Of a stretch of DNA of 47,675 nucleotides, positions 5,945 through 33,399 are shown one piece after another. The translations under genes and the position numbers were made by a program. The stretch is from Actinomycetota bacterium (GTDB lineage: Bacteria; Actinomycetota; Thermoleophilia; Gaiellales; Gaiellaceae), in NCBI GenBank assembly GCA_013812235.1, contig JACCTU010000047.1, positions 1-47,675 on the forward strand, given 5' to 3'. How positions within the stretch are numbered: position 1 is the stretch's first letter; every line of letters begins with the position of its first letter. The notes beneath the pieces were generated by a model, which worked only from the letters and a program-made list of their open reading frames with translations, was not told where the DNA came from and did no database searches.

Positions 5945-5975
5945 AAAAGGCGGGCCGCCACATCGCCCGCCTTTT
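5945..5975. terminator. Bidirectional intrinsic terminator
   Basis: AAAAGGCGGGC-cgccacatc-GCCCGCCTTTT forms an 11-bp stem. The minus-strand reading is followed by CGTTTTCG and the plus-strand reading by a T4 run. Confidence 0.7.
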
Positions 5976-14255: not shown

Positions 14256-15336
14256 GTCTGAGCTGTCTGGCCCGTCAGATGGCGCCTCGCTTGGCTGGGC
14301 GCGACGCCAGCTGCTCGGACTCATGCTGGTCGCGGCAGCGATCCCGTGCACGGTCGTTGCGGCAACTGTCGTGCCGAAGGCGCCCCCGGCCGTCGGTGTG
14401 CAGTTCCACTGCACGTGGACCGACTACACGAACAGCACGCGGACGAGCGTCGCGGATCGGCTGCGCGCGGCCTCTGTGCAGTGGGTCCGCATCGACGTGG
14501 GCTGGAAGTCGCTTCGTCCCCGGCGCGGCTCGATCGGCCGCGCGTACCAGACCCGCCTCGACAACTGTGTCGACCTCGCGCGCCGACGCGGCTTTCGCGT
14601 GCTGCTCACGCTCGGGTGGACGCCGCGCTGGGCGAGCGCAGACGGCGACGACCGCTCTCCGCCGACTCAGGCGCGGGACTACGCAGCGATCGCCCAGTGG
14701 CTCGCTCGCCGCTACCGCGGTCGCGTCGCCGCGTACGAGGTCTGGAACGAGCCGAACCTGACCGACTTCTGGACGGGTACGGTCGAGGACTACGTTCGTG
14801 TGCTGCGCGCGGCCTATCCTGCGTTCAAGCGCGGCGACCGCAAAGCGCTTGTCGTCTTCGGCGGCCCCTCCGGGAACGACGACGTGTTCATCCGTCGCGC
14901 CTACGCCGCAGGTGCGCGGGGCTCGTTCGACGTCATGGCGACGCATCCCTACCAGGGGTCGGCCGACGCGCCGCCCGAGTACGTCGACGACGGGGAGCGC
15001 TGGTGGCTGACCCACGTACCTTCGGTCAGGCGGGCGATGATCGACGCCGGCGACGCCAAGAAGCCGATCTGGTTCACCGAGACAGGGTGGTCCGCTCACG
15101 CGAATGACCCCGACACCGCACGCTGGCGACTGGGCGTCGACGAGCGGATCCAGGCGGACTACGCAACGCGCATGCTCCGGCTTGTGCGGACGACCTACCC
15201 CTACGTCACCCATGTCTTCTGGTACAGCGAATGGGCGCGCCTCGAAGGTGAGGACGTGCACCTGCGCGGGTTCGGGCTCCTGAGGCCTGACCTCTCGCCG
15301 CGACCCGTGTACGACGCCCTCAAGAACCGTCCTTAG
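14254..15336 (+). CDS. Secreted clan GH-A glycoside hydrolase (GH5/GH39-like), Tat-type signal
   Basis: Starts at MSELSG...ARRQLLGLMLVAAAI, which includes a twin-arginine motif. The (beta/alpha)8 catalytic signatures are YEVWNEPNL (acid/base) and PIWFTETGWSAH (nucleophile). It is a paralogue of 27058-28353. Confidence 0.75.
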   Translation: MSELSGPSDGASLGWARRQLLGLMLVAAAIPCTVVAATVVPKAPPAVGVQFHCTWTDYTNSTRTSVADRLRAASVQWVRIDVGWKSLRPRRGSIGRAYQTRLDNCVDLARRRGFRVLLTLGWTPRWASADGDDRSPPTQARDYAAIAQWLARRYRGRVAAYEVWNEPNLTDFWTGTVEDYVRVLRAAYPAFKRGDRKALVVFGGPSGNDDVFIRRAYAAGARGSFDVMATHPYQGSADAPPEYVDDGERWWLTHVPSVRRAMIDAGDAKKPIWFTETGWSAHANDPDTARWRLGVDERIQADYATRMLRLVRTTYPYVTHVFWYSEWARLEGEDVHLRGFGLLRPDLSPRPVYDALKNRP

Positions 15337-16406
15337 GGGCACTCGAGCAGCTTTCGGAGTATCGGTACCGCAACGCGTGTTGCGCTGTTCTCATCGGAGA
15401 CGAGTGCGTGATGGTGCAGTCCCGGCAACGCGTTCACCTCGAGCACTACACCGCCGGTCGTTGCGAGCGGCTCCGTGACCGACCGTGCGATGAGGTCGAC
15501 TCCGGCGAGGCGCAGCCCCACGGCCTTTGCTGACGCGACGACCGCGGCGCGGACGTCCGGGTGCAGCTCGTGCACGGTGTGGTTCTCGTGCGCGGCATTC
15601 TGGTTCGTCGCCGTCTTGACGGCGATAGTCGTCCCCGCGGGAAGAACCGAACGCGGGCCGAGGCCAGCAGCGCGCAGGGTGAAGAGCATCTCGTGGTCGA
15701 TCCTAAGGAGCCACAGACCCGCTTGCCCGCGCGCAGCCAGCCGACGATCGTTCTCGGTCGCAACGAGCTGAGCGATCGTCGAGCGGCCGTCACCGGTCAC
15801 GCGCGGCGCCTCCCGGCGAACGGCTCCGATCACCTCGCCGTCCAGCACGAGAATCCGGAACGATTCCCCCGGCACCTCCAGTTCGACGAGGACGCGTTCC
15901 GAGAATCGCCGGGCGACCAACCGAGCACGGCGGAGCTGAGCGGGTGTCCGCACGCCGCAGGTCACTCCCGCGCCAACTCCCGCGTCGGCCGGCTTGACGA
16001 CCCAAGGGCACGGACCGAGCGCCGGGAGGCCCGCCGTTCCTGTGCGCCCGAGCTCAACGTGCGTCGGAACCGGGAGACCTCTGGCCGCCAGCATGCGGTG
16101 AACGAGTGGCTTGTCGAAGGAAACCTCGATTGCGGCCGCGTCGTCCAGCGAAACTACCTCCTGCTGCACGAGCGTCGACCGCCCACCCAGGCTGACCTCG
16201 AGGACTCCCGACCCTCCGTCCATCACGTCTGCGCCGACCTCGGCCGCGGCGTCCTCCCAGAGCCCGCGGTAGATGTGCGCCCGGTAGGTCCGAAGCAGCT
16301 CGAGTCCGGCGAGGCTTCGGAGCACGACCCGAGCGCTCCGTGGACCGACCGACCGGAGCAGATCGAGCCGGACGAGCAGATCGCGTGCGGGCGCGGAAAG
16401 CGTCAC
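15333..16406 (-). CDS. Stand-alone ATP-grasp ligase resembling the N-terminal ATP-grasp module of cyanophycin synthetase
   Basis: 357 aa. The pattern is VVKPADAGVGAGV...FRILVLDGEVIGAVRRE.PRVTGDGRSTIAQLV..EN..R......LRID......L...G....SVLPAG..I.VKTATNQNAAHEN..V..ELHPD......SAKAVGLRLAGVDLI.......PL...GGVVLEVNALPGLHHH. There are no Mur-ligase domains. A 4-nt overlap joins it to the flippase gene. Confidence 0.75.
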   Translation of the reverse strand: MTLSAPARDLLVRLDLLRSVGPRSARVVLRSLAGLELLRTYRAHIYRGLWEDAAAEVGADVMDGGSGVLEVSLGGRSTLVQQEVVSLDDAAAIEVSFDKPLVHRMLAARGLPVPTHVELGRTGTAGLPALGPCPWVVKPADAGVGAGVTCGVRTPAQLRRARLVARRFSERVLVELEVPGESFRILVLDGEVIGAVRREAPRVTGDGRSTIAQLVATENDRRLAARGQAGLWLLRIDHEMLFTLRAAGLGPRSVLPAGTTIAVKTATNQNAAHENHTVHELHPDVRAAVVASAKAVGLRLAGVDLIARSVTEPLATTGGVVLEVNALPGLHHHALVSDENSATRVAVPILRKLLECP

Positions 16407-17878
16407 GGTCCGGCGCCGTCGATGTCGGATTCCAGTGCCGTCGGCGCTGCCGCCGGGCGGCGACGCAGCAGCTCGAAGAATCCGTGTGCATCCTCCGGGA
16501 ACGCTCGTCGCTCATAAGAGGCGAGCACGCCGACATACACAGCGGCGGCGCTTGCGAGCGCGAGAAGCGGGCGGTCGACCAGCGCGATCATCGTCGCGGC
16601 GCATGCCGTCCCTGCGATCGCCGCGCCGCTGAGCATTCTTCGCCAGTGGAGGTCCCCGCAGATGCGTCCGGAGACGATGAGGAGGGGAATCGCCGCGAGG
16701 AACTGCGAGACCGATGTCCCGAGCGCCGCGCCGTCGAGCGACAGCCAGGGAATGAGGAAGAAGTTGCAGAGAATGTTCTGAAGCGCGACGACGCCGAGCA
16801 CGATCGTCAAGACACGCTGCCTGTCCCGCGCGACGCAGAGCAGGCCGGCGAGGTACGCAACCGGGTAGAGCGGGATCGCAGGGGCAAGCAGCCGTAGCGC
16901 ATTCGCTGCCTCGTCATAGTCGGCGCCGTACAAGAGCTCGACGATCGGTTCCGCGAGCACGGCGGCGCACAGCGCGAGGGGCAGGGTCGCAAGGATCGAG
17001 AACTTGATCGCACGTTCGAACACCGCGCCGACGGGCGGACTCGTCGTCGGGGTCAGCCGTGAGAACACGGGATACACTGCCGCGCCGATGCTCCAACCGA
17101 CGAAGAGTGTCGCCTCGAAGAGCCGGTACGCCGCGCCGTAGTTACCAACGACGTCCTCCGACTCGAACGCCGCGAGCATCGCCGTGTCGACGCGGAACAA
17201 CACCGTGCCGAACACGCCCGCGAGACCGATCGGAAGAGCGGCACGCATGAGCGGCCGCCAGACGCCGACGTCGAGCTCGAGTTGCGGGCGCACGACGTAC
17301 CGGAAGAGCAGCGCGAGCGTGAACACGAAGGCGAAGAGCGCGCCTGCGAGATAGATGGCCGAGACTGCGACCACGCCTGCCCCGAGCAGCAGAGCAACGA
17401 CGCCGACGATCGTCGTCAAGAACCGCTGAGCGCTCAGGGCGATCGGGATGAAGACGAGCCGTTCGTGCGCCTCGAAGACCGCGAAGCACGTGCCGCGCAA
17501 CAGCTCGGCGACGACCGCAGTACCTAGGAGCGCCACAACGAGCACCGCCTCTTGGTTGCTCGTCGCCGAGGCATAGGCGAGCGCGAGCCCCAGCGCGGGA
17601 ACCGCGAGGATCAGCTTGAGCGCGATGTTGTTGGCGAACTGGCGATCGACCTCGGCACGGTTTCTCGCAACTTCCCGCGTCAGGACGGAGTTCTGACCGA
17701 AGTCGGCCAGCACGGTCACGAGCGTCACAAGGGCCAGCGCGAACGTGAAGACGCCGAAGTCCTCGTCACCGAGCTTGCGGGCCATGACGATGAAGAGCAC
17801 CGTCGTCGCCACCTTCGAAGCGAGGTCCGCGACGCCACGGTAGGCCGTGTTTGCGAAGATCCGGCGCCCCGTGCTCAT
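16403..17878 (-). CDS. Wzx-type oligosaccharide flippase (MOP superfamily polysaccharide biosynthesis protein)
   Basis: 491 aa with about 14 TM helices and a typical N-terminus (NTAYRGVADLASKVATTVLFIVMARKLGDEDFGVFTFALA). Confidence 0.85.
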   Translation of the reverse strand: MSTGRRIFANTAYRGVADLASKVATTVLFIVMARKLGDEDFGVFTFALALVTLVTVLADFGQNSVLTREVARNRAEVDRQFANNIALKLILAVPALGLALAYASATSNQEAVLVVALLGTAVVAELLRGTCFAVFEAHERLVFIPIALSAQRFLTTIVGVVALLLGAGVVAVSAIYLAGALFAFVFTLALLFRYVVRPQLELDVGVWRPLMRAALPIGLAGVFGTVLFRVDTAMLAAFESEDVVGNYGAAYRLFEATLFVGWSIGAAVYPVFSRLTPTTSPPVGAVFERAIKFSILATLPLALCAAVLAEPIVELLYGADYDEAANALRLLAPAIPLYPVAYLAGLLCVARDRQRVLTIVLGVVALQNILCNFFLIPWLSLDGAALGTSVSQFLAAIPLLIVSGRICGDLHWRRMLSGAAIAGTACAATMIALVDRPLLALASAAAVYVGVLASYERRAFPEDAHGFFELLRRRPAAAPTALESDIDGAGP

Positions 17879-18999
17879 CGATCGCCTCTTCGCAGCACGC
17901 GCTTCAACAGGGTCTTCTGCCGGTCAGGGATCCGTTCCGCTGCGAAGCGGCGGAGACGCTTCGCGCGGACGACGCCTCTCGTCCGGACAGCACCGCGTCC
18001 CGCCGGTATTACGTGTGCCCACCGCAGAAGCTGCTCGCTCTCCGCCCAGCGCCGCTTGAAGCCCTGTGCACCGGGACCGAAGTCGACGCAGCGCTCCCCA
18101 CGTACAAACGCATCGCGTACCGCCTCGTCGAGGCACAGGATCGACGGCTCGCAGTCCGCGAACGCGTCGTCGAAGCCGCCGAGCCACGAAGAGACCGTCC
18201 CACCGGCGGCAAGAAGGATCTCGGCGGCGACGATCCGCCCGCCGGCCTCGATCACCCAGACCCGCAGGTGCTCTGGGGCGAGCGTCCGAGGCAGCTCTTC
18301 GACCATTCGCTCGACGCCCGGCGACAGAGCGCCCGTTCCGCCCCTGCTGTTCCACCGCGCGTGATGAAGCTCGACGAACGCCCCAAGCGCATTTGCGAGG
18401 TCTGCCGGCTCGACCAGGATCGGCCCCCTACCTCCGACGTCGTCCAGCCGGCGACGCCGTCTACGCATGGCCTTTCGGTACTTGGAGCTCTGCGACGCGA
18501 TCCAGGCGACGTGGTCGCGACCGGCGATGTCGAGGAGGGGCGCCGCCGTCCTGCGCTCGTCGTCCACAGCGGGCCGCTTACCCCCCGGCCAGGATTCGCG
18601 CAGCAGGTCCGGCCACGGAGAGTCGTGAGGCACTCCCTCGAAGGCGACGGCGATCGGCACCTCGGTCGACTCCGCAAGGACGCGTGCCAAAGCGTCCGCC
18701 ACCTCGCGCTCCCGCCCGGATCGCGCCACCGGCTCGACGGAGGTCGACGTGCCGGAAGCGAGGAACCGCAGCCACCGTCCGCCGGGGACCGGCTCGTAGA
18801 GCGGAGCGACTCCGATCAGGTCGTCGCCGTCGTAGACGAGCACGGTGCGTAGGCGTGCCCCCTCAGGCGAGGCATTCCGCCACCACGGCAGCATCCAACC
18901 GGAGAGCGCATACGGCCGCCCGGCCGCGATGGCCAGCTCGTCCCACTGCGAACGGGCAGACTCGAGTTTGGCGACGTCCTCGACGAGCTCCCCGCGCAC
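17875..18999 (-). CDS. CelD/BcsL-like GNAT-fold acyltransferase (FemAB-like, Acetyltransf_6 type)
   Basis: 374 aa with a GTG start. The N-terminus (LESARSQWDELAIAAGRPYALSGWMLPWW...VLVYDGDDLIGVAPLY) and C-terminus (ILCLDEAVRDAFVRGERCVDFGPGAQGFKRRWA) follow the CelD family layout. It is a paralogue of 19819-20913. Confidence 0.75.
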   Translation of the reverse strand: MRGELVEDVAKLESARSQWDELAIAAGRPYALSGWMLPWWRNASPEGARLRTVLVYDGDDLIGVAPLYEPVPGGRWLRFLASGTSTSVEPVARSGREREVADALARVLAESTEVPIAVAFEGVPHDSPWPDLLRESWPGGKRPAVDDERRTAAPLLDIAGRDHVAWIASQSSKYRKAMRRRRRRLDDVGGRGPILVEPADLANALGAFVELHHARWNSRGGTGALSPGVERMVEELPRTLAPEHLRVWVIEAGGRIVAAEILLAAGGTVSSWLGGFDDAFADCEPSILCLDEAVRDAFVRGERCVDFGPGAQGFKRRWAESEQLLRWAHVIPAGRGAVRTRGVVRAKRLRRFAAERIPDRQKTLLKRVLRRGDR

Positions 19000-19060
19000 G
19001 GGATGCGAGTGTACGGCACGTCCTGCGAGCTCCCTGCTCTGGCTCTGCGACGATCCGGAG

Positions 19061-19822
19061 GTGTCGATCCCTCCACCTCTCGCGCTGACCTACCACGGCG
19101 TCGCAGACGTCCCGTTGCGGCGCGACCGGCACCACCTGTTCGTCCGGCCGCGGGATCTGAGACGCCAGATCGCGAAGCTCCGCAGCTGGGGCTACGAGCT
19201 CGTGACATTCGGCGAGCTGGCGCGTCGCGCGGCCCGAGGAGAGGCGGCCGGCTCCGCGGCGCTCACCTTCGACGACGGCTTCGTGGACAACCTCGAGACG
19301 CTGGTGCCTCTCCTCTACGAGGAGGGAGCGCCGGCAACGGTCTTCGTCGTCTCGGGTTGGCTCGGCGACGTGCACCCGGTCGCCAGCTGGACCCGGCTGA
19401 TGACGGACGACGAGGTGCGTGAGCTCGCCCGAGCGGGGATCGAGGTCGGCGCGCACACGCACACCCACCCGGACCTGACGAAGCTGAAGCGCGACGGCGC
19501 GTTGGCCGAGCTCGTCGAGTCCAAGGAACTGCTGGAGCGCGCGACCGAGCAGCCGATCGACGTCGCGGCGTATCCCTTCGGTGCGGCCAACGCCGCCACG
19601 CGCCTGCTCGCATGCGAAGCGGGCTTCCGGGCGGCGTGCCGGACGCTGGGGCAAGGCCGTTGGAAGGACCCCTACGACCTCCCCCGCCAGGCGATGGAGA
19701 ACCGCGCGAGCGATCTGGGGCTCTGGCTGAAGCGCGAGGGCCGCTACGAGACGCTGATGCGCTTCTATCCCGCGCGCGTCGTTCGCAAGCTGAGCCGTCG
19801 CGGAAAGGCGCTCCTCGGGTGA
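19061..19822 (+). CDS. Polysaccharide deacetylase (NodB homology, CE4)
   Basis: Motifs LTFDDGF, VGAHTHTHPDL and AAYPFG are present. The start is uncertain: GTG 19061 was chosen because the upstream part of track ORF 18845.. overlaps the divergent gene and is Ser/Arg junk. Confidence 0.8.
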   Translation: MSIPPPLALTYHGVADVPLRRDRHHLFVRPRDLRRQIAKLRSWGYELVTFGELARRAARGEAAGSAALTFDDGFVDNLETLVPLLYEEGAPATVFVVSGWLGDVHPVASWTRLMTDDEVRELARAGIEVGAHTHTHPDLTKLKRDGALAELVESKELLERATEQPIDVAAYPFGAANAATRLLACEAGFRAACRTLGQGRWKDPYDLPRQAMENRASDLGLWLKREGRYETLMRFYPARVVRKLSRRGKALLG

Positions 19823-20913
19823 CCGATGAGGTAGCGCTGGAGCACGCCGTGGACGAGCGGGCCTCGGACTGGGACGAGCTCGCCACGCGGACTGCCGCGC
19901 TGCCCTTCGTGCGGCCCGGGTGGATCCGGTCCTGGTGGGAAGCGTTCGGCCACGGTGACCTCGCCGTGCTCGTCGCCCGACGCGACGGTCGGGTCACGGG
20001 AGTGCTCCCGATCCAGCGAGTCGGCGGCCGCGTTCGACTTCCGGCGAACATGGAGTCCGGCGCATTCGAGCTCGTGGCCGAGGACGACCGCGCCCGTGGT
20101 GCGCTCGTGGTAGGTCTTTATCGCCTGCCCTCCTGGTCGACGGAGCTCCAGTTCCTCGATGTGAACGGCGGCGACTTGCCGGTCGCCCGTCGCGAGGCGG
20201 ACGCTGCGCGACGCCGCCGGACCGAGCGGTTCGTCGAGCGTTCCCCCTACGTCCCCGTCGTTGGCGGCTTCGATGTCTTCCTGGAAAACCGGAGCGCGAA
20301 GCTGGTCGCCGATGTGCGCCGCCGGCGTCGTCGACTCGCGGAAGAGGCCGGTAGCGTCGAGCTCGTCGTCTCGGACGGCAGCGAGCAGCTTCACGCGCTC
20401 CGCGAGGCCGGCTACGCCCTCGAAGCTTCCGGCTGGAAGGGCGAGGAACGCACCTCGATCGGAGCGCGACCTGCGGCGCGCCGGTTCTACGACGCCATGA
20501 CAGAGTGGGCTGCCGAGGAAGGGATTCTGCGGCTTGCGTTCCTGCGTGCCGGCGGCCGCGACGTCGCGTTCCAGCTCGGGATCGAGAGCGACAACGTCTA
20601 CTACTTCTGCAAGGGCGGCTACGACGTCGAGTACCACCGGTTCGCGCCCGGCAAGCTCCTCGTGCACGACATGTTGGAGCGCGCGTTCGAGCTGCGCCTG
20701 CGCTCATTCGAGTTCCTCGGCGACGCGGAGGCGTGGAAGCTCGACTGGACCGACGCCGTGCGCGAGCGCCGCGCACTCGAGACGTTCGACCGCTCGATCC
20801 GCGGTTCTGCGGCGTGGGCCGCCGAGCGGTACGGGCGACCCGTCGCGAAGCGCGCACGCCTCAAGACGGCGCTGCTTGCAGCGCGCCGCGGTCTCGCGCG
20901 CGTGCGGCGCTAA
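19819..20913 (+). CDS. CelD/BcsL-like GNAT-fold acyltransferase (second copy)
   Basis: Its GTG start overlaps the deacetylase stop (GTGA). The sequence includes WDELATRTAALPFVRPGWIRSWW...LVARRDGRVTGVLPIQ and ...YYFCKGGYDVEYHRFAPGKLLVHDMLERAFELRLRSFEFLGDAEAWKLDW. Confidence 0.75.
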   Translation: MTDEVALEHAVDERASDWDELATRTAALPFVRPGWIRSWWEAFGHGDLAVLVARRDGRVTGVLPIQRVGGRVRLPANMESGAFELVAEDDRARGALVVGLYRLPSWSTELQFLDVNGGDLPVARREADAARRRRTERFVERSPYVPVVGGFDVFLENRSAKLVADVRRRRRRLAEEAGSVELVVSDGSEQLHALREAGYALEASGWKGEERTSIGARPAARRFYDAMTEWAAEEGILRLAFLRAGGRDVAFQLGIESDNVYYFCKGGYDVEYHRFAPGKLLVHDMLERAFELRLRSFEFLGDAEAWKLDWTDAVRERRALETFDRSIRGSAAWAAERYGRPVAKRARLKTALLAARRGLARVRR

Positions 20914-21713
20914 CCCGAGCCTGGGCTCGGCGGGCGTAGGTTCTCGTGCTGGAACGCGTCGGAGTGGAGGCCTCGGCGGTAGATCTCCACACGCAAGAGC
21001 TCTTCCAGCCGCACGTTGCAGAGTCGGACGCGCGGGCCGAAGTGGTTCATAAACTGGAACTGGCTCGACTTGTTGGGCGCCTCGAAGGTGACGGTGTCGA
21101 GCCCGAAAGCGGAGGCGAAACGATCGGCGAACGCGGCGTCGAGACGTCCGTGCTCGTCGAACGTCCCGACGCCCGCCGCGCTCTCACGCGCCTCGACGAC
21201 GATTTCCCGCGCACCGACGTCGAGCCAGTGCTTTCCCTGTTCGATCAAGTCGTCGACTACGGAGTTCGTGAAGGCGCCGCCGTGCTTCTTCCCGAGCTCG
21301 AACTGGATCTCGAGCCCGCGCTCGTGTGCAAGGCGTGCGATGTCCGAGGGCTCGAGCGCCAGGTCTGTGAAGCCCTCGCCGCACTCCACTCGCGTCGCAC
21401 CGACGTCCGCGCAAAGGTCGAGGTACTCCTCGAGTCGTTCCTGTTGGACGGCGACCTCGAACGGCCCACCACCGGTCGTTGTTGCGACGCCGCACCGTTT
21501 CGCCGCGTCGAACTTCCGGCGCGTTGCGCCTTCGTCGGCGATCAGCCAGCACGCCATCGAGATCTTGAGGATCGACATCAAGTGTCCGCTTTGCTCGAGG
21601 TGGCTCTCCACCGTGACCGGGTCGTACCCGGGATCGAACGGGCTCGTGGCGGGCTCGAGGTCGCGGACCCCGAGACTCCGCAGAAAGTCGCCCGTGTGAT
21701 GCTCGCCGCTCAC
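20910..21713 (-). CDS. comA: (2R)-phospho-3-sulfolactate synthase (ComA family)
   Basis: 267 aa that lines up block by block with my recollection of archaeal ComA: LKISMACWLI, TTGGGPFEVA, GATRVECGEGF, FELGKK, GAREIVVEARESAAGVGTFDEHGRL, VTFEAPNKSSQFQFMNHFGPRVRLCNVRLEELLRVEIYRRGLHSDAF. The GTG start overlaps the upstream stop (GTGA). Confidence 0.85.
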   Translation of the reverse strand: MSGEHHTGDFLRSLGVRDLEPATSPFDPGYDPVTVESHLEQSGHLMSILKISMACWLIADEGATRRKFDAAKRCGVATTTGGGPFEVAVQQERLEEYLDLCADVGATRVECGEGFTDLALEPSDIARLAHERGLEIQFELGKKHGGAFTNSVVDDLIEQGKHWLDVGAREIVVEARESAAGVGTFDEHGRLDAAFADRFASAFGLDTVTFEAPNKSSQFQFMNHFGPRVRLCNVRLEELLRVEIYRRGLHSDAFQHENLRPPSPGSG

Positions 21714-22945
21714 GTCGGCTCCGAGAACAGCCCGAAGCGCCCTGGGCCCGCCGCGCCTCGTGCCTTCGTCAGCAGGAAGCGACCGGCCATGGCGGCGAAC
21801 GGTAGCGGGTCGTCGGCGGCGAACCAGGCCGCCTCATCGACTCCGCGAAACGCGCGTGCCCAGTCGCCGACCGTGAGCGCGCCGTCGCGGAAGTAACGCC
21901 GCGACGAGACGAGGTCGAGGTTCTCGACGAGCCAGCGCCTGCCCTCGCGAGGGCGGGACGACGGAACGGTCTGACCGGTGAGGTCGAGATACGCCGCACG
22001 TACGACGTCCAGCCCGTCGGAGCCGACGAACAGGCGAAACGACGCGCCCAGGCGCGGGTTGACGTCGAGGAGCTTGTACCGGCCGTCGCGGGCGTCGTAG
22101 CGCCAACCGATATCGAGCACCCCACGATACCCGACCTGGTGCATCAGCTGCACGGTCGATGCCTCGACCTCGTCGTTCCGGAGACAGATGCCGAGGCTCG
22201 TCATGCCCGTGTAGGGAGGGAACTGGCGCAGCTTTCGACCCGTGACCGCGAACAGGCAGCGCGACAAGGCGTCGAAGTAGCCGTTGAACATCCAGACCGA
22301 CTCCGCACCACCCGGGATGTACTCCTGGAGCATCAAGTTCGGATCCTCGGGATCGGCGAGGCGACCGTAAGCAGCCCGGAGCTCGTCCGCGGACTCGACG
22401 ATCACCATGCGGACACCCGTTCTCGCCTGCAGCTTCCACGAGTCGATGCCCTTCACGACGACGGGGAAGACCGCGTCCGAAAGAAACCGCTCGACGTCGC
22501 TATCCGATTCGGGGAAAGCCGTCTCCGGAGTCGGCACGTGGAGGCGCTTGCACAGGAGATACATCTGCTTCTTGTCGTACAGCGTGTTCGCGACGCCCTC
22601 CGGTTGTTCCGGGAACACGAACCATTCAGCCAGCAGTCGGGCGTTCTCCGACAGGAACACGCTCGACACGTCGTCGGTCGCTAGGAGAACTGCCTTGCGC
22701 CCGATCCGCGCCGCGAGCGCCTCGAGCATCGCGAGCGGATCGTCCTCCGGTCGCTCGTCGCGATTCCAGAAGATGCGCTTACGTGCGTATCGCGAGCGAG
22801 CGGCAGGTGCGCTGGGATCGTCGTGGAACGTCCAGGTCTCAACGCCGAGCCTGCCGAGTGAGCGCGCCATACCCAACGTCGCGTGGTCGAAGAGCTCGGG
22901 AACGAGCTTCAGGCCTACGAAGGGCGTGCTCGTGTCGACGGTCAC
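21710..22945 (-). CDS. ATP-grasp carboxylate-amine ligase (COG3919 / D-aspartate-ligase-like)
   Basis: 411 aa. The pattern is ...LYDKKQMYLLCKRLHVPTPETAF...FPVVVKGIDS...MLQEYIPGGAESVWMFNGYFD...GYRGVLDIGWRYDARDGRYKLLDVNPRLG. It lies between comB and comA. Confidence 0.8.
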   Translation of the reverse strand: MTVDTSTPFVGLKLVPELFDHATLGMARSLGRLGVETWTFHDDPSAPAARSRYARKRIFWNRDERPEDDPLAMLEALAARIGRKAVLLATDDVSSVFLSENARLLAEWFVFPEQPEGVANTLYDKKQMYLLCKRLHVPTPETAFPESDSDVERFLSDAVFPVVVKGIDSWKLQARTGVRMVIVESADELRAAYGRLADPEDPNLMLQEYIPGGAESVWMFNGYFDALSRCLFAVTGRKLRQFPPYTGMTSLGICLRNDEVEASTVQLMHQVGYRGVLDIGWRYDARDGRYKLLDVNPRLGASFRLFVGSDGLDVVRAAYLDLTGQTVPSSRPREGRRWLVENLDLVSSRRYFRDGALTVGDWARAFRGVDEAAWFAADDPLPFAAMAGRFLLTKARGAAGPGRFGLFSEPT

Positions 22946-22949
22946 CGAC

Positions 22950-23660
22950 TCAGCTCATCCCAGGGAGCTCGATCAGCTCGCTCCCCGATAGGGCGAACGC
23001 CGACGTGAGGTCGTCGACGTGCGCGAGGATGAAGTCGAGGTCACGGAGTTGGTCCGTGCGGCGCAGGTACTCGACGCTGTTGCTGTTGAGAAACGCCTCG
23101 ACCGGCTCGTTGCCCCACTGCGCGATCAAGCTCTCCGTCTGCTCGTTCTCTGGCTGGTGGCCGAGCTGCACGAGGCGCGAGGCGATCCACGCCGCACAGA
23201 GTTGATCCTCCTCCCGGAACTCTCCGCGGGCCCCGGCTCCGACGATCGCCACGCGCTCGTGCCGTGCCGCCGCGCGACTCTGCGCCTCAACGTTGCGCAA
23301 CGAGGCGGCATAGGCAGCCTCCGCGCCCCGGGACTCGTGCAGGACCTGAGTCCCCGAGGTCGAGAGCAGAACGACGGGCCGACGGTTGCCGGGCTGCGCC
23401 GCCAGCGCCGCCGGGCTGTTTTGGAGCTCGAAGCCGAACGGGACGCTGCCGCCGAGCTCTCCCATGAGCAGTGGATCCTCGAGCTCTGCCGCCGTCGCGA
23501 GAGCGTTTTCCAGGGTCGGCACGGGAAAGCACCGCCGGCCGAGCGCAACGGCCGTTTGCGCTGTCGTCGTCGCCCGGATCACATCCACCGCGACGATGGC
23601 ATGGTCCGAGACGTATCTCGCCACGCTCGCCGGGAAGCAGTCGATGACGACGGTCGCCAC
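22950..23660 (-). CDS. comB: 2-phosphosulfolactate phosphatase (ComB family)
   Basis: 236 aa with a GTG start. Family pattern: IVAVDVIRATTTAQTAVALG, LLMGELGGSVPFGFELQNSP, VVLLSTSGTQVL, VAIVGAGARGEFREEDQLCAAWI. Confidence 0.8.
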   Translation of the reverse strand: MATVVIDCFPASVARYVSDHAIVAVDVIRATTTAQTAVALGRRCFPVPTLENALATAAELEDPLLMGELGGSVPFGFELQNSPAALAAQPGNRRPVVLLSTSGTQVLHESRGAEAAYAASLRNVEAQSRAAARHERVAIVGAGARGEFREEDQLCAAWIASRLVQLGHQPENEQTESLIAQWGNEPVEAFLNSNSVEYLRRTDQLRDLDFILAHVDDLTSAFALSGSELIELPGMS

Positions 23661-23717: not shown

Positions 23718-24593
23718 ATGCGGTTCTCAGTTGTCATTGCCACTCTGCGCCGCCCCGAGCTGCTCAGGGAGACGCTGGCGAGCGTGGTCGCGACGGTCCC
23801 TCCGCCGAGGGAGATCGTGGTCGTCGACGGTGACGAAGCAGGCTCGGCGAGAGAAGTCGTCGAGTCGATTTCCGCGCCCGCGGGCACGTTGGTCTCGTAC
23901 GTCGCCGGCGTGCCGAACGTGACTCATCAACGAAACGAGGGCACGCGTGTCGCGTCGGGCGACGTCGTCGTCTTCGTCGACGACGACGTCGAGCTTGACA
24001 CACGCTTCTTCGCTGCTCTGAGCGCCGCCTACGAGGATCCGAAGGTCGTCGGCGCGACAGGTCGGGTGATCGAGCCGCAGGCACATCGCGTGGGCGACCA
24101 TCGCTCCCGCGTCCGTCGATGGCTGCTCTCAGGCGGGAGGCTCGGGACATTCACGACGTTCGGCTACCCCAGGTACATCCTGGACACCACGCGTGCGCAA
24201 GACCTCGAGATGATGCCCGGCTGCCTGATGACCGCGCGCCGGGAACTGGCCCTCGCAGTCGGTTTCGACGAGAGCTTGGAGGGCTACGCCCTCGCAGAGG
24301 ACGAAGACTTCTCGTATCGGCTCTCCCGGCACGGGCGTATCCGCTTCGATCCTGCGGTCAGCCTCTGGCACAAGAAACTCGGCTTCGGGGAACGCGATCC
24401 ACGCGCATTCCACCGAAAGGTCGTGGTCAATCGCGCGTACCTTTTCCGAAAGAATTTCCCGCAGACGATCCGCGCGCGCACGAGGTTCGTCCTCCTGATC
24501 CTGCTGATGATCACGCACCGTGTCGCCAATCGAGACGCGCAAGGCGCCCGTGGGCTCCTCGAGGGCAGCGTCGAGGCGTGGCGGAGGAGGTAG
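23718..24593 (+). CDS. Family 2 glycosyltransferase
   Basis: Starts at the internal ATG (MRFSVVIATLRRPELLRETLASV...). It has a DxD region (VVFVDDDVEL) and a later EDEDFSYRL motif. Confidence 0.85.
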   Translation: MRFSVVIATLRRPELLRETLASVVATVPPPREIVVVDGDEAGSAREVVESISAPAGTLVSYVAGVPNVTHQRNEGTRVASGDVVVFVDDDVELDTRFFAALSAAYEDPKVVGATGRVIEPQAHRVGDHRSRVRRWLLSGGRLGTFTTFGYPRYILDTTRAQDLEMMPGCLMTARRELALAVGFDESLEGYALAEDEDFSYRLSRHGRIRFDPAVSLWHKKLGFGERDPRAFHRKVVVNRAYLFRKNFPQTIRARTRFVLLILLMITHRVANRDAQGARGLLEGSVEAWRRR

Positions 24594-25651
24594 ACCCTCT
24601 CGGGATCGCGTTCGTCTCCTCCCACGCGCGAAAGGGTGGATCCGAGCGATACCTCGAGTCGCTGATCCGTCGGCTCGGCTCGGATTGGACACGTGTTGTG
24701 GTGTGCCTGGAGCGGGGCCCACTGGCCGACCGTCTGCGGGAAAACGGGATCCCGGTCGAGGTCGTCCACTCCTCGGGCCGGCCACTTTCCGTTGCGGCCG
24801 CTGCGTGGCGATTACGCGCGGTGCTGCGGCGCACGCGACCGGCCCTCGTACACGCGAACGGCGTAAAGGCTGCGCTTGTCGCGGGCCTCGCAACGCTCGG
24901 GACGAGCACGCCGGTCGTCTGGGTGAAGCATGACTTCAGCTGGGATGGCCCCCTGTCGGCGCTCATCGCGGGGCGATGCCGGTTCGTCGTCGGAGTCAGC
25001 GAGGCTGTGACGAGGTCGCTCCCCCGACGCGGTCGCGTGCGCGTCGTGCCAACGGGGGTCGACGCCGTCCCGGCCTTCGCAGCAGCGGGCGAGACAGTCC
25101 AAGGGAACCGAATCGGTGTCTTCGGCTACCTGCACCCCGTCAAAGCGCAACTCGAGCTCGTCGAGGCGGCACCCCGCGTGCTCGAGCGAGTGCCAGATGC
25201 CCGGTTCCTCGTGGTCGGGGGCGACGACCCCAGCGTTCCGGGCTACCGCGAGATCGTCCTCGAACGCGTCCGTGCGCTGGGGCTTGAGCAAGCCATTTCC
25301 TTCCTCGGTCATCGCGAGGATGCGCGGGAGATCATGCGAACCTGCTCGGTGGTAACGGTCACAACGCTTTCCCGCGGTGAGGGGTTCGGCCTTGTTGCCG
25401 TCGAGGCGCTCCTGGCCGGTAAACCGGTGGTCGGGTACGCGCTCGGCGCGCTGCCCGAGGTGGTGGGCGAGTGCGGGAGGCTCGTCGAGCCGGGCAATCG
25501 AGTCGCGCTCGCGGACGCACTCGTAGAGCTGCTCGAGAACGACCGTCTCCGCGACGAGCTCTCCCGCTGCGGCGAGCGGCGAGCCCTGGAGCGGTTCTCG
25601 CCCGAGCGTTGGATCGCCGAGATGCGAACGATCTACCGAGAGGCAGTCTGA
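24578..25651 (+). CDS. Family 4 (GT-B) glycosyltransferase
   Basis: A GTG start overlaps the GT2 stop by 16 nt. The N-terminus reads GIAFVSSHARKGGSERYL, and the C-terminal EX7E region reads TLSRGEGFGLVAVEALLAGKPVVG. Confidence 0.8.
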   Translation: MAEEVDPLGIAFVSSHARKGGSERYLESLIRRLGSDWTRVVVCLERGPLADRLRENGIPVEVVHSSGRPLSVAAAAWRLRAVLRRTRPALVHANGVKAALVAGLATLGTSTPVVWVKHDFSWDGPLSALIAGRCRFVVGVSEAVTRSLPRRGRVRVVPTGVDAVPAFAAAGETVQGNRIGVFGYLHPVKAQLELVEAAPRVLERVPDARFLVVGGDDPSVPGYREIVLERVRALGLEQAISFLGHREDAREIMRTCSVVTVTTLSRGEGFGLVAVEALLAGKPVVGYALGALPEVVGECGRLVEPGNRVALADALVELLENDRLRDELSRCGERRALERFSPERWIAEMRTIYREAV

Positions 25652-27105
25652 TGCCCGAACGGATCGACCCGATTTGGCCTGTGATCGCCGCGCTCATGGC
25701 GGCGGCCGTGCTTGGCGCGATGAGCCTCGCCACAGGGTTCGGCCTGCTGAAGATTTCGACCACGGTCGGCAACTCAGCGACGGTGATGATCTTTCTGCTG
25801 GTCGTCGGGCCGCTGGTCGCACTCGCGACATTCCTGTCCCCCCGGATCGCTATCGCGGCAACATTCGCTGCCTTCTTCGCCGGCCCGGAGGAGACAAGAG
25901 CGGCGATCTTCTTCTTCGGGATCCTCGTGATTCTCGGGCGCATCGCGGTCGGGCGCACGCCGATCGCCTGGTCACCGCCGCTCTGGTGGGCCGCAGCTTT
26001 CGCGAGTTGGTCGTTCGTCCTCATCGGCTATGCCGTGGAGCCCAACCTCGCCACGAAAGAGGTCGTGCTTCTGTTCGCGGGTGTCGTCTTCGCGTGCATC
26101 GTGCTCGCTGCCTGCCGCACGATGGATGACGCTCGCTGGATCGCCGGCGTCTTCGTCCTCGTTGGCGCCGCAATAACGGCTCGCGCGTTCACCGACCTGA
26201 GCCAACTGAAGACGACGTTCCAGGGGGCGTCTGTCGAGGGTCGCCTGGCAGGGGACTTTGGTTCGCCGAACCAGCTCGGCTCGTTTTGCGCGATGGCGAC
26301 GTTTGTCGCCGCCGGGCTCGCGCTCGGCGGCAGAACCGTGATCACGCGGATCGGCGCCGCGCTCGCGATGGCGGTCCTCCTGCTCGGTTTGACCTTCTCT
26401 CTGTCCCGCGGTGCCTGGATCGGATCGATTGCCGGTTTTGTCTTCCTGCTCTTGTCCCTTCGGCAGGCGCGGCGAATCGCGCTCGCGATCGGACTGCCGA
26501 TGATCTTGATCGCGTGGGCGCTGGGCTCCTTCGCCGCCGAGAACACGCAGATCAAGGTCATTACGCAGCGGGTCGGTGCGCTCACGTTCACGAGCCCCTA
26601 CGACGCGCGTCCGGCGATCTGGGACGAGGCGTTGCGCGAGATCCGCACGCGTCCTTGGACGGGCTACGGCCCAGGCAGCTTCCCCGTCTCGAGCCTACGA
26701 GCGGGTGCCGAGACGAGGTCGACCTATGCGCTACACGCGCACAACATCTTTCTCAACGTCGGCGCCGAGTCGGGCCTCCCCGCGCTGGCGATGCTGCTCG
26801 GCTTGATCGGTGCGCTGGCGCTTGCAGGACGACGCGCATTACGTGGCGCACGCGAGCGAGGTGACTTCCGCGATGCAGCGTTCATTGCCGGGGTCCTCGC
26901 CGCCCTCGTGAGCGTGCTCGGTCAGGCGTTTGTCGACTACACGCTGCGCAACGTCGTCATCTACGTCGCGCTCTGGGGTCTGATCGGGATCCTACTCGTG
27001 GCGAGGCGGACAGCTTCGGGTCAGACGCGCCGCCATGACCGCCACCGGCGCGACCCGCTATTCGGCTCGGAGCAGGCGGTACGTCGGTCGAGGCCATCGG
27101 GCTGA
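25651..27105 (+). CDS. O-antigen ligase/polymerase-family (Wzy-like) membrane protein
   Basis: The ATG overlaps the upstream TGA (TGATG). The protein has about 12 TM helices and a Wzy_C-type loop (LSRGAWIGSIAGF...YALHAHNIFLNVGAESGLPALAMLL). Confidence 0.8.
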   Translation: MPERIDPIWPVIAALMAAAVLGAMSLATGFGLLKISTTVGNSATVMIFLLVVGPLVALATFLSPRIAIAATFAAFFAGPEETRAAIFFFGILVILGRIAVGRTPIAWSPPLWWAAAFASWSFVLIGYAVEPNLATKEVVLLFAGVVFACIVLAACRTMDDARWIAGVFVLVGAAITARAFTDLSQLKTTFQGASVEGRLAGDFGSPNQLGSFCAMATFVAAGLALGGRTVITRIGAALAMAVLLLGLTFSLSRGAWIGSIAGFVFLLLSLRQARRIALAIGLPMILIAWALGSFAAENTQIKVITQRVGALTFTSPYDARPAIWDEALREIRTRPWTGYGPGSFPVSSLRAGAETRSTYALHAHNIFLNVGAESGLPALAMLLGLIGALALAGRRALRGARERGDFRDAAFIAGVLAALVSVLGQAFVDYTLRNVVIYVALWGLIGILLVARRTASGQTRRHDRHRRDPLFGSEQAVRRSRPSG

Positions 27106-28353: not shown

Positions 28354-28390
28354 CAAGGTTATGCGACTCCTCCCCACTACTTTGGCTATC

Positions 28391-28403
28391 GGCGGGCTTT
28401 GCC
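28391..28403 (-). repeat. Copy 1 of recurring intergenic 13-mer GGCGGGCTTTGCC
   Basis: Exact 13-mer, 38 nt upstream of the minus-strand hydrolase start at 28353. Confidence 0.6.
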
Positions 28404-28550
28404 GGCCTGCCGGATCCCCCGAAAGCGTCACTCGAACGAGGGAGGGGTGACGCACTGTCACCCGAACGGGGAAACGACCTTGTGCGCTAGATTCGCGTCG
28501 CACGATTGCCGACGGCCAGCGGACCCGGGTACCGGCGCGTGACACACACC

Positions 28551-32704: not shown

Positions 32705-33399
32705 CGCAGCCGTCGCAGCAACGGCGACGTCCGGAGCCGGAAGCCGGCGGTCGTGTCGTGGCGGTACACCGCCAGCCTCGGCAGGCCGAAGCGGTCGCTG
32801 CGCACCCTGCCGGGCTTCACCGCGAACGCCGCGGCGTAGCCCGCGCGGCGCGCCGCTCTCCGCACCCGGTCGTCCTCCTCACCGTACGGGTACGCGAGGT
32901 ACCGACACGGCACGCTCAGCTCGTCCTCGAGCTCGACCTTGGACTCGCGCAGCTCGCGATCCAGGTCTGCGTCGGAGAGCCGCGGCAGATGCGGATGCGA
33001 CACAGTGTGCGAGCCGATCTCCACGCCGCCCGACGCCGCCGCACGAAGCGCCGAGAAGTCCATCGTCGCGAACGCGGCGGGGTCGGCTGCCGCGTCCTCT
33101 CGGAGCTCGGGCACGTCGAACGGACGGCCGTCACGCGCAGTGCCCGTGCACGCGAAGATCGTGGCCGGGACGCCGAGCTCGGCCAGGAGCGGCAAGGTAT
33201 CGGCAGCGCTCCGGTAGGCGTCGTCGAACGTCACGTGGAGCAGGCGGCCCCGCCGCTCGACCGCGTCGGTCGCCGTGACGGGCTCGTAGCCGCGGCGAAG
33301 CAGCGACCTGAGCTGCGACTCGAGCGTCTCTCGCCGGACGGCAAGCCGCTGCGGCTCTCCTTCGACGACCGCGTGGTAGCAGAGGACGAGCGCCCTCAA
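32701..33399 (-). CDS. Polysaccharide deacetylase (CE4), second copy
   Basis: 232 aa with a TTG start. Motifs are VTFDDAY, IGSHTVSHPHL and LAYPYG. It is a paralogue of 19061-19822. Confidence 0.8.
   Translation of the reverse strand: MRALVLCYHAVVEGEPQRLAVRRETLESQLRSLLRRGYEPVTATDAVERRGRLLHVTFDDAYRSAADTLPLLAELGVPATIFACTGTARDGRPFDVPELREDAAADPAAFATMDFSALRAAASGGVEIGSHTVSHPHLPRLSDADLDRELRESKVELEDELSVPCRYLAYPYGEEDDRVRRAARRAGYAAAFAVKPGRVRSDRFGLPRLAVYRHDTTAGFRLRTSPLLRRLR

Follow-up and report, generated by a model that had tools for sequence, protein, structure and literature searches.

A cassette of three tightly linked genes, predicted to make the sulfonated acid sulfolactate and to join it to something, sits inside a polysaccharide-export locus in Gaiellaceae DNA, and the same trio recurs in hundreds of mostly uncultured soil bacteria, pointing to an undescribed way of putting a sulfonate group on bacterial surface sugars. 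The window, that is, the whole 47,675-nucleotide stretch analysed, carries a comB-like gene, an ATP-grasp ligase gene and a comA-like gene on the minus strand, in that order of transcription, within a Wzx/Wzy-type exopolysaccharide (EPS) locus that extends from about 9.3 to 34.7 kb. The trio and the genes of the locus that bear on its function are as follows.

22950..23660 (-): comB-like 2-phosphosulfolactate phosphatase family gene (236 aa), first gene of the trio.
21710..22945 (-): ATP-grasp carboxylate-amine ligase family gene (411 aa), middle gene.
20910..21713 (-): comA-like phosphosulfolactate synthase family gene (267 aa), last gene of the trio, its GTG start overlapping the ATP-grasp stop.
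18845..19822 (+): CE4 polysaccharide deacetylase (CE4a; Pfam Polysacc_deac_1, 1.7e-27), real start probably near 19061; candidate enzyme for unmasking the amine acceptor.
19612..20913 (+): FemAB-like GNAT (AcT6b; Acetyltransf_6, PF13480, 4e-29), convergent with comA. It is called as 364 aa on sibling contigs, which by arithmetic rather than by reading the sequence puts the start near 19819, overlapping the CE4a stop.
17875..18999 (-): second FemAB-like GNAT (AcT6a; Acetyltransf_6, PF13480, 6e-29), first gene of the AcT6a-wzx-ATPg2 run.
16403..17878 (-): Wzx-type flippase (Pfam Polysacc_synt, 1.3e-29).
15333..16406 (-): second, unrelated ATP-grasp (ATPg2) of the cyanophycin-synthetase / N-acetylglutaminylglutamine-synthetase type, an amino-acid ligase type (NCBIfam PRK14016, 3.5e-52; TIGR03103, 3.2e-44), with no similarity to the ATP-grasp of the trio.
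23727..24593 (+): GT2 glycosyltransferase (Pfam Glycos_transf_2, 7e-15), divergent from comB across a 66-bp spacer.
9280..10767 (-): priming polyprenyl glycosylphosphotransferase (PGT; Pfam Bac_transf, 2.8e-57; NCBIfam TIGR03025, 365 bits against a cut-off of 295), one edge of the EPS locus.
25471..27105 (+): Wzy_C-type polymerase/ligase, with a second one at 11524-13506 (-) (Pfam Wzy_C, 5e-22 and 7e-13).
28506..29834 (+): BY-kinase / chain-length regulator (Pfam AAA_31; NCBIfam TIGR01007, 3.8e-27).
32701..33399 (-): second CE4 deacetylase (CE4b; Pfam Polysacc_deac_1, 1.2e-23).

The observation made in the sequence-only reading, which had described this gene order, its junctions and its EPS setting, is confirmed in every particular we examined. 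All three reading frames begin with GTG and have a GC3 of 0.84-0.86, like the other real genes of the window. The ATP-grasp stop TGA overlaps the comA start GTG (gacGTGAgc, 21710-21713), whereas four bases (gtcg, 22946-22949) separate the comB stop from the ATP-grasp GTG. Independent gene calls on three other public contigs that carry the identical protein give the same 236/411/267-aa models, and assembly GCA_020063825.1 carries the same genes.

Family assignments for the outer proteins are secure at the level of Pfam, with ComA (PF02679) scoring 154 bits against a cut-off of 25.2 (6e-45) and 2-ph_phosp/ComB (PF04029) scoring 127.6 against 26.4 (5.4e-37). Both match their families over full length with the conserved motifs intact: the ComA-like protein aligns with M. 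jannaschii ComA (1QWG, 8.6e-34) and keeps the VE..(D/E)G, E.GKK, E.RES and FEAP.KS.Q motifs, whereas the ComB-like protein matches the solved ComB-family structures 2z0j (1.7e-18), 2yyv and 1vr0 and keeps the DVIRATTT, NSP and AG..G.F..ED motifs. However, both score below the NCBIfam equivalog cut-offs, so that a shift in substrate cannot be excluded. The middle protein is only a borderline Pfam ATP-grasp (CPSase_L_D2, 20.2 against 19.8), but its predicted structure (AF2 model, pLDDT 86.8, pTM 0.87) is a full, canonical three-domain ATP-grasp, and a Foldseek search with this model returned PurK, 2pn1, L-amino-acid ligases and Ddl at probability 1.0 and 11-18% identity. These are generic ATP-grasp matches and give no clue to substrate; likewise, the D-aspartate-ligase-type label attached to the protein in the sequence-only reading rests only on names given by sequence sources.

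Might the pair simply feed conventional coenzyme M biosynthesis? ComA and ComB are the first two enzymes of the archaeal pathway, and comC and comDE could in principle be encoded elsewhere in the genome. We consider this a remote possibility. As had been stated from the sequence alone, there is no comC or comDE in the window, and neither is among the recurrent neighbour families examined in 80 related genome loci (see below). The ComA-like protein scores 148 bits against a cut-off of 280 for the archaeal equivalog TIGR03849, the genes sit inside EPS loci of soil bacteria, and the bacterial coenzyme M route, represented by the Xanthobacter xcb genes, is not known to use ComB.

Although the sequence-only reading had treated the module as a local curiosity, it is in fact a widespread conserved cassette. 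The ATP-grasp family comprises 2,128 representatives (clusters at 50% identity) at E<=1e-30, and relatives occur in 534 species-representative genomes. In 80 such genome loci, spanning Acidobacteriota, Actinomycetota, Chloroflexota, Bacteroidota, Gemmatimonadota, Myxococcota and others, ComA and ComB each lie within 3 kb of the ATP-grasp in 68. The coupling is reciprocal: of 48 ComA-anchored metagenome loci with at least 2.3 kb of downstream sequence, 47 have ComB and 45 have the ATP-grasp. The ComA-like protein of the window is 63-66% identical to cassette ComA proteins from an isolate and two MAGs labelled as other phyla. Isolates that bear the trio include Aggregicoccus sp. 17bor-14. Frequent companions of the trio are a SAM methyltransferase, a malate-racemase-like LarA, a priming PGT and CE4 deacetylases. 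No sulfite-generating genes were found in the window, and none accompany the cassette in the loci examined.

The company that the trio keeps is, for the most part, that of glycan assembly. Of 42 trio loci with full flanks, 33 have a glycan hallmark gene and 25 have a PGT, Wzx, Wzy, BY-kinase or UpxY antiterminator, and a PGT sits immediately upstream of the cassette in at least 13 of the 80 genome loci. Relatives of the ATP-grasp are, moreover, fused to CE4 (fusion proteins P0164 and P0268), to a FemAB-like GNAT of the Acetyltransf_6 type (P0125, P0169), to two GT4 domains (P0205) and to a PGT (P0117). In P0164, the ATP-grasp half is 48% identical to the ATP-grasp of the window and the CE4 half is 53% identical (2e-78) to residues 77-325 of CE4a but only 36% identical to CE4b. 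Neither CE4a, CE4b nor any of the trio proteins has a signal peptide or transmembrane segment, whereas the two GH5 enzymes do, so that de-N-acetylation and ATP-dependent ligation could share the cytoplasm.

An alternative would be that the cassette makes a soluble small molecule, either free sulfolactate or an N-sulfolactyl amino acid or amine serving as a compatible solute, storage compound or signal, and that its position in EPS loci reflects nothing more than co-regulation. Bacillus subtilis accumulates free sulfolactate in spores using the yitCD ComB/ComA homologues (PMC517825), 9 of the 42 full-flank loci have no recognisable glycan gene nearby, the trio locus of Aggregicoccus (L001) likewise shows no glycan genes near the trio, and the methyltransferase and LarA companions would also suit small-molecule tailoring. 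Given the fusions to CE4, GT4, a PGT and a FemAB-like GNAT, along with the upstream PGT genes and the 33 loci that do carry glycan genes, we regard this scenario as unlikely.

What, then, might the trio do? We suggest that it is a self-contained glycan-tailoring cassette. In this view, ComA adds sulfite to phosphoenolpyruvate (PEP) to give 2-phospho-3-sulfolactate, ComB removes the phosphate to give (R)-3-sulfolactate, and the ATP-grasp enzyme activates the sulfolactate carboxylate as an acyl phosphate and joins it by an amide bond to a free amine on the lipid-linked or nucleotide-linked repeat unit of the exopolysaccharide, in the cytoplasm and before Wzx export. In this window the amine would most likely be that of a hexosamine de-N-acetylated by the apparently cytoplasmic CE4a encoded 1.1 kb away, and the product would be an N-sulfolactyl, permanently anionic, C-sulfonated polysaccharide. 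While the gene models, the family and fold assignments, the conservation of the trio, the fusions and the EPS context emerge directly from our analysis, the substrates and catalytic activities of all three enzymes, the direction of ligation, the acceptor and the order of steps are inferred from sequence, predicted structure and gene neighbourhood alone. We consider this model somewhat more likely than not, and we found no paper describing such a system. The sequence-only interpretation, which likewise had the pathway end at sulfolactate and the ATP-grasp amide-link it to an amino sugar unmasked by CE4, is partly supported: the comparative evidence makes it more likely, but it remains an inference.

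Several aspects of the data caution against a firmer conclusion. Three fused ATP-grasp loci that we examined (L170-L172) have no ComA or ComB within about 5-6 kb, so the family may accept other acids, and the link to CE4 and the link to sulfolactate are each shown in different subsets. CE4 lies within 10 kb in only 20 of the 80 genome loci, and the nearest relatives, the Gaiellaceae loci L006 and L007, show no CE4 in the 10-kb flanks retrieved; the same neighbour set as that around AcT6a is present in these two loci. Also counting against the model, no sulfite-generating genes accompany the cassette, and 9 of the 42 full-flank trio loci have no recognisable glycan gene nearby.

It is also conceivable that the product class is the same but that the order of steps or the acceptor differs. 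The ATP-grasp might ligate 2-phosphosulfolactate, with ComB removing the phosphate afterwards, much as in Campylobacter, where the C-terminal ligase of Cj1438 (Cj1438C) ligates a phosphorylated amine and the phosphatase Cj1435 acts after ligation (PMC11800397). Alternatively, the acceptor might be the alpha-amine of an amino acid first attached to the sugar by the FemAB-like GNATs or by the second ATP-grasp, giving an N-(sulfolactyl-aminoacyl) sugar. Consistent with the latter, two Acetyltransf_6 genes and a cyanophycin-synthetase-like ATP-grasp flank the trio here and in the Gaiellaceae-, Bacteroidota- and Gemmatimonadota-labelled loci, ATPg2 sits next to ComA in Gemmatimonadota-labelled and other loci, and relatives of the trio's ATP-grasp occur fused to Acetyltransf_6. 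Yet most trio loci lack both Acetyltransf_6 and the second ATP-grasp. As regards the order of steps, a LarA homologue closest to nickel-dependent malate racemases, with the THG/GG.K/HP motifs kept, flanks ComA in 13 of the 80 genome loci and 11 of the 48 metagenome loci. Malate is the carboxylate isostere of sulfolactate, and LarA enzymes act on free 2-hydroxy acids and need a free 2-hydroxyl, which supports dephosphorylated sulfolactate as a real intermediate and favours dephosphorylation before ligation. We view these variants as possible but rather unlikely.

Finally, the ATP-grasp might activate a carboxylate on the glycan itself, a uronic acid, as Cj1438C does in its role as an ATP-dependent amidoligase acting on polymer-bound glucuronate, with sulfolactate attached through its 2-hydroxyl as an ester, or the ligase might have a role unrelated to the ComA/ComB product. 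UDP-glucose dehydrogenase genes do recur near the trio, in 13 loci in a de novo clustering of neighbours and in 8 of the 42 full-flank loci. However, sulfolactate has no amine, ester-forming ATP-grasp enzymes are rare, the family shows no detectable sequence relationship to Cj1438C (hhalign probability 0.2%), and an unrelated role would leave the roughly 90% reciprocal linkage to ComA and ComB unexplained. We judge this explanation very unlikely.

How does the cassette relate to systems already described? The accessory families found beside the trio in some loci, namely CE4, Acetyltransf_6, an AMP-forming ligase, a TIGR03025 PGT and an XrtA-associated ATPase-like protein, also occur in EPS loci of the XrtA/PEP-CTERM and HfsH types, which have a cytoplasmic CE4 deacetylase, a FemAB-like GNAT and an acyl ligase; scores for the PEP-CTERM-specific models are nonetheless below their cut-offs, no exosortase was seen, and the trio is not known to be part of the described system. 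The LarA-like companion, which is absent from this window, matches broad-spectrum LarA (9eid, 7e-30), the malate racemase Mar2 (6d6z, 1.7e-29) and the NCBIfam malate-racemase models (4.8e-51) with catalytic motifs kept, but scores below all equivalog cut-offs, and its genomic partner suggests sulfolactate as substrate, an activity that is not known to have been described for the LarA family of nickel-pincer 2-hydroxyacid racemases. The ComA and ComB families themselves are those of archaeal coenzyme M biosynthesis and of B. subtilis YitD/YitC, the latter showing that the pair can end at sulfolactate in a bacterium (PMC517825). The present clade is 63-76% identical within itself across loci labelled as different phyla and is almost always linked to an ATP-grasp ligase in EPS loci, a link that neither the coenzyme M pathway nor the Bacillus operon is known to have.

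Two further systems offer parallels for the ligation step. In Campylobacter jejuni, Cj1438C and Cj1435 carry out ATP-dependent amide decoration of a capsular polysaccharide during assembly, paired with a phosphatase that removes a phosphate from the small-molecule partner (PMC11800397). There, however, the sugar's own carboxylate (glucuronate) is activated and an amine (serinol-P or ethanolamine-P) is added, whereas here the small molecule would be the acid, and Cj1435 is a HAD phosphatase rather than a ComB-family enzyme. Neisseria PglB2, an ATP-grasp/PGT, provides a published precedent for the chemistry we propose: its ATP-grasp domain is held responsible for putting a small 2-hydroxy acid, glycerate, onto a sugar amine during assembly of an undecaprenyl-linked glycan, giving the N-glyceroyl (4-glyceramido) sugar GATDH, and it is physically fused to the priming PGT (PMC11130364, PMC6959607). 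In our model the acid would be sulfolactate, made by a dedicated ComA/ComB pair, and the amine would come from CE4 de-N-acetylation, not from a dehydratase/aminotransferase pair, no DegT-type aminotransferase having been seen in the window. P0117, the member of the present family fused to a PglC-like PGT domain, has the reverse domain order to PglB2, and glycerate and sulfolactate differ only at C3, where the former carries OH and the latter SO3-.

The window carries three minus-strand ORFs exactly where the sequence-only reading had placed a comB - ATP-grasp ligase - comA operon, and that observation is correct in every detail that we examined:

22950-23660, minus strand, comB-like gene (236 aa)
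21710-22945, minus strand, ATP-grasp ligase family gene (411 aa)
20910-21713, minus strand, comA-like gene (267 aa)

Third-position GC of the three genes is 0.84-0.86, typical of real genes in this DNA of roughly 69% GC, and the junctions are as had been described, with the ATP-grasp stop overlapping the comA start in GTGA, four bases separating the comB stop from the ATP-grasp start, and, in addition, a 66-bp spacer between comB and the divergent GT2 gene. Three other public contigs, one from NCBI assembly GCA_020063825.1 and two from SRA assemblies, carry the identical ATP-grasp protein; independent gene callers give the same three gene models on two of them, whereas on the third (locus L169; throughout, L numbers designate loci and P numbers proteins of the ATP-grasp family) comB was not called. 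Scans for promoters and terminators around the trio found nothing.

To establish whether the family assignments hold, we compared the three proteins with profile libraries and solved structures. The ComA-like protein matches Pfam ComA (PF02679) at 6e-45, with 154 bits against a cut-off of 25.2 over profile positions 14-243 of 243. It aligns over its full length to the solved M. jannaschii enzyme 1QWG (8.6e-34), keeping the VE..(D/E)G, E.GKK, E.RES and FEAP.KS.Q motifs, including the E.GKK lysine, the proposed proton donor K137; these motifs are invariant among the four cassette ComA sequences that we aligned. The ComB-like protein matches Pfam 2-ph_phosp (PF04029) at 5.4e-37 (127.6 bits against a cut-off of 26.4) as well as the solved ComB-family structures 2z0j, 2yyv and 1vr0, with the DVIRATTT, NSP and AG..G.F..ED motifs intact. 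However, both proteins score well below the NCBIfam equivalog cut-offs, at 148.3 bits against 280 for the archaeal CoM-pathway ComA equivalog (TIGR03849) and, for the ComB equivalogs (TIGR00298, PRK00886 series), at best 80.5 against 235 and 73.7 against 175, so that they are members of the families but not of the CoM-pathway equivalog groups.

The middle protein is only marginally an ATP-grasp by sequence and has no close solved relative (best E 4.5e-4 in a sequence search of solved structures). Its confident AlphaFold model (pLDDT 86.8, pTM 0.87), by contrast, is a canonical three-domain ATP-grasp that resembles PurK, 2pn1, L-amino-acid ligases, Ddl and biotin carboxylase in a Foldseek search (probability 1.0, TM 0.57-0.78, 11-18% identity), all of them generic ATP-grasp matches, so that the predicted fold gives no hint of substrate. 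K125, K165, Q207-E208, D294, N296 and R298 are invariant in 20 family members, although their assignment to ATP/Mg binding is by position only, and many arginines are invariant as well (R28, R32, R286, R298, R304, R316, R336). The sequence-only reading had labelled the protein as COG3919/D-aspartate-ligase type; that label rests only on names given by sequence sources to homologues ("D-aspartate ligase", "predicted ATP-grasp superfamily ATP-dependent carboligase"), and NCBIfam gave only carbamoyl-phosphate-synthase-like hits.

The trio lies in a Wzx/Wzy-type EPS locus between 9.3 and 34.7 kb, where a TIGR03025 priming transferase (PGT), Wzx, two Wzy_C proteins, a BY-kinase with both PHP-type and LMW phosphatases, and one GT2 and two GT4 glycosyltransferases occur together with two GH5-type hydrolases, two SDR sugar-nucleotide enzymes, two CE4 deacetylases, two FemAB-like GNATs and a second ATP-grasp of the cyanophycin-synthetase / N-acetylglutaminylglutamine-synthetase type. 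Several of these functions are present in duplicate:

11524-13506 (minus strand) and 25471-27105 (plus strand), two Wzy_C proteins, one with a TPR tail
14182-15336 (plus strand) and 27058-28566 (minus strand), two secreted or anchored GH5-type hydrolases
13539-14414 (minus strand) and 31104-31682 (plus strand), a PHP-type (CpsB) and an LMW tyrosine phosphatase, alongside one BY-kinase

The second ATP-grasp (ATPg2; 15333-16406, minus strand) forms an overlapping run with a FemAB-like GNAT gene and the flippase gene (AcT6a-wzx-ATPg2); we rejected the idea that the two ATP-grasp genes are paralogues because they show no sequence similarity. The whole EPS locus (9280-34730) lies between clpC and lysS within a housekeeping block, with carD-disA-radA-clpC on one side and lysS-greA-dus-coaX-folKBP on the other, and around 21-29 kb its GC (0.66-0.67) is slightly lower than that of the flanks (0.70-0.72). 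A stretch of about 2.4 kb at 3684-6152, between an HTH gene and a short M28-peptidase-like ORF whose match covers only a fragment of that domain, has only overlapping ORFs that fail the GC3 test and is either unannotated or degraded. An Rfam scan of the window found no matching family.

One explanation for a ComA/ComB pair would be conventional coenzyme M synthesis. Neither comC nor comDE, nor the bacterial Xcb enzymes, are present in the window or among the recurrent neighbour families examined at related loci, and together with the ComA score below the archaeal equivalog cut-off and the EPS context this leads us to reject the CoM pathway as very unlikely. There are no sulfite-producing genes in the window either.

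Is the trio peculiar to this window? A scan of one genome per species found relatives of the ATP-grasp in 534 genomes, the best 80 of which include Acidobacteriota (the majority), Actinomycetota, Chloroflexota, Bacteroidota/Ignavibacteria, Gemmatimonadota, Myxococcota, Proteobacteria and three archaeal MAGs. The nearest are Gaiellaceae MAGs at 61% identity, with the same gene order as the window, so that the window probably comes from a Gaiellales-like actinobacterium. In the archaeal MAGs (L020, Methanomicrobiales; L075 and L085, Bathyarchaeia) the bacterial-type ComA-ComB-ATP-grasp trio has a ligase 48-52% identical to that of the window, which could reflect horizontal transfer or a binning error. 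Across the 80 loci, ComA and ComB each lie within 3 kb of the ATP-grasp in 68; ten loci lack one or both anywhere in the fetched sequence, several of these being truncated contigs. Anchoring on ComA instead gave at least 570 metagenome stretches, and of the 48 best loci with enough downstream sequence 47 have ComB and 45 have the ATP-grasp. ComA proteins from loci labelled as different phyla are 63-76% identical, and an exhaustive search gave 2,128 representatives of the ATP-grasp family (clusters at 50% identity) at E<=1e-30. The trio is, in short, a conserved and widespread cassette.

The cassette keeps recurrent company. A class I SAM methyltransferase (MT) accompanies the trio in about half of the loci (39-43 of 80 genome loci and 30 of 48 metagenome loci; L001-L003 and many of L006-L165) and is repeatedly fused to the ATP-grasp at either end (P0053, P0059, P0124, P0126, P0137 and others), although the window has no such gene next to the trio. 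A LarA-family (nickel-pincer) homologue, closest to nickel-dependent malate racemases and with the catalytic motifs kept, lies beside ComA in 13 of 80 genome loci and 11 of 48 metagenome loci (L004:6554-7936, also L029, L031, L041, L047, L057, L060, L071, L093, L100 and others), again with no copy in the window. LarA enzymes act on free 2-hydroxy acids and malate is the carboxylate isostere of sulfolactate, so that this companion provides independent support for dephosphorylated sulfolactate as the pathway intermediate; it is a candidate sulfolactate racemase, an activity that is not known to have been described for this family. Locus L071 belongs to a Candidatus Sulfotelmatobacter sp. MAG. 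This genus was proposed from peatland MAGs, some of which were reported to carry sulfolactate-degrading genes (suyAB, slcC, comC; PMC6018796), and the presence of the putative sulfolactate-making trio in one of its members hints at both production and consumption of sulfolactate within Acidobacteriota.

In loci labelled Acidobacteria, Terriglobia or Terriglobales the common unit is PGT-MT-ComA-ComB-ATP-grasp, whereas in loci labelled Longimicrobium or Gemmatimonadota, and in several unassigned metagenome contigs, it is ATPg2-ComA-ComB-ATP-grasp-CE4, with ATPg2 lying directly upstream of ComA in, for example, L044, L052, L059, L088 and L091; an Acidimicrobiales locus (L068) has the same genes in a different order. 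A PGT lies directly upstream of the cassette in at least 13 of the 80 genome loci and somewhere in 29 of 80, while in the window it is about 10 kb away. Other recurrent neighbours are UpxY antiterminators, BY-kinase-like proteins, UDP-glucose dehydrogenase, SDR enzymes, Wzy, sigma-54 activators, and GGDEF and PilZ proteins. Note that de novo clustering of neighbours chained adjacent genes, because stop-to-stop ORFs span gene boundaries in high-GC DNA, and that we therefore used only its clear clusters. Of 42 trio loci with at least 8 kb on both sides, 33 have a glycan hallmark gene and 25 an assembly-specific one. The remaining 9 lack glycan genes nearby, as does the Aggregicoccus locus L001 (Aggregicoccus sp. 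17bor-14, GCA_009659535.1; MT-ComA-ComB-ATP-grasp), so that a second possibility, namely that the cassette makes a soluble sulfolactyl metabolite, cannot be dismissed.

Fusion proteins tie the ligase family to glycan work. Relatives of the ATP-grasp are fused to a PglC-like PGT domain (Bac_transf; P0117), to CE4 (P0164, P0268), to an Acetyltransf_6 domain (P0125, P0169), to two GT4 domains (P0205) and to a second copy of the ATP-grasp itself (P0121, P0188). Tandem or fused duplicate copies occur in several lineages (also L012, L016, L021, L023, L024, L049, L073 and L077), suggesting two successive ligations or two acceptors. One relative (P0251, 851 aa) has an architecture unlike the glycan-linked fusions, with an N-terminal flavin-dependent Lys/Orn N-monooxygenase-like domain. 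P0164 is the most telling: its ATP-grasp half is 48% identical to the window's enzyme (3e-111), and its CE4 half is 53% identical (2e-78) to residues 77-325 of the CE4 encoded at 18845-19822 in the window but only 36% identical to the window's other CE4.

The sequence-only reading had proposed that the ligase joins sulfolactate to an amino sugar unmasked by the CE4 enzymes of the locus, and this Rosetta-stone link is what such an acceptor hypothesis predicts. It is also topologically sound, since both CE4 proteins and all trio proteins lack signal or TM segments whereas the GH5 enzymes have them. Keeping in mind, however, that the three fusion loci we examined are clear EPS loci but have no ComA/ComB within about 5-6 kb, the CE4 link and the sulfolactate link are documented in overlapping but not identical subsets of the family, and we regard that interpretation as partly supported.

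The best-supported reading has three steps: ComA would make phosphosulfolactate from PEP and sulfite, ComB would convert this to sulfolactate, and the ATP-grasp would activate its carboxylate and N-acylate a sugar amine, exposed in the cytoplasm by CE4, on the growing repeat unit before export. While the gene models, the family assignments, the predicted fold, the conservation of the trio, its companions and fusions and the EPS setting follow from our analysis, the chemistry is entirely inferred, including the addition of sulfite to PEP by ComA, the substrates of the other two enzymes and the acceptor. On present evidence ComB might act before or after ligation, and the acceptor might be the sugar nitrogen or an amino-acid amine added by the FemAB-like enzymes or by the second ATP-grasp. 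Activation of a uronate carboxylate by the ligase, on the other hand, is unlikely, because sulfolactate has no amine.

Why might this matter? Sulfonate (C-SO3-) groups occur on lipids and on free metabolites, whereas anionic bacterial polysaccharides normally owe their charge to uronic acids, pyruvate, phosphate or O-sulfate esters. An N-sulfolactyl decoration would be a new glycan substituent, permanently charged and stable to acid and phosphatase. Given that the cassette is common and concentrated in abundant, mostly uncultured soil lineages, it could bear on soil aggregation, metal binding, desiccation tolerance and the origin of soil organosulfonates. It would also give ComA/ComB a third physiological role besides coenzyme M and spore sulfolactate, it suggests a new substrate for nickel-pincer racemases, and it offers a compact gene set (ComA, ComB, ATP-grasp, with or without CE4) for engineering sulfonated polysaccharides. 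More tentatively, and on balance somewhat less likely than not, a widespread, undescribed pathway in soil bacteria (Acidobacteriota, Actinomycetota, Chloroflexota, Gemmatimonadota, Bacteroidota, Myxococcota) may build carbon-sulfonated, N-sulfolactyl exopolysaccharides from PEP and sulfite, with a sulfolactate racemase as a new activity of the LarA family and a dedicated methyltransferase. If so, microbial EPS would be a direct biological source of the large, poorly explained carbon-bonded sulfonate pool in soil organic sulfur.

Full-text literature searches on sulfolactate or phosphosulfolactate synthase in connection with ATP-grasp enzymes, polysaccharides or Acidobacteria found no description of sulfolactyl conjugates or of a ComA/ComB/ATP-grasp cassette, and a paper on peatland Acidobacteria concerns sulfolactate degradation genes only. 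Published precedents nevertheless exist for each kind of step. Campylobacter Cj1438C/Cj1435 carry out an ATP-dependent amide decoration followed by dephosphorylation, although a profile comparison with the Cj1438C sequence, taken from the supplement of the paper describing it, found no relationship to the present family (hhalign probability 0.2%, E 0.3). Neisseria PglB2, an ATP-grasp/PGT, gives the 4-glyceramido sugar GATDH, and association with the priming phosphoglycosyl transferase is likewise seen in the present family, both in the P0117 fusion and in the PGT genes next to the cassette. The enzyme families and the logic of ATP-grasp N-acylation of glycans are known; the dedicated supply of sulfolactate, inferred from the ComA/ComB pair, and the predicted sulfonated product are not.
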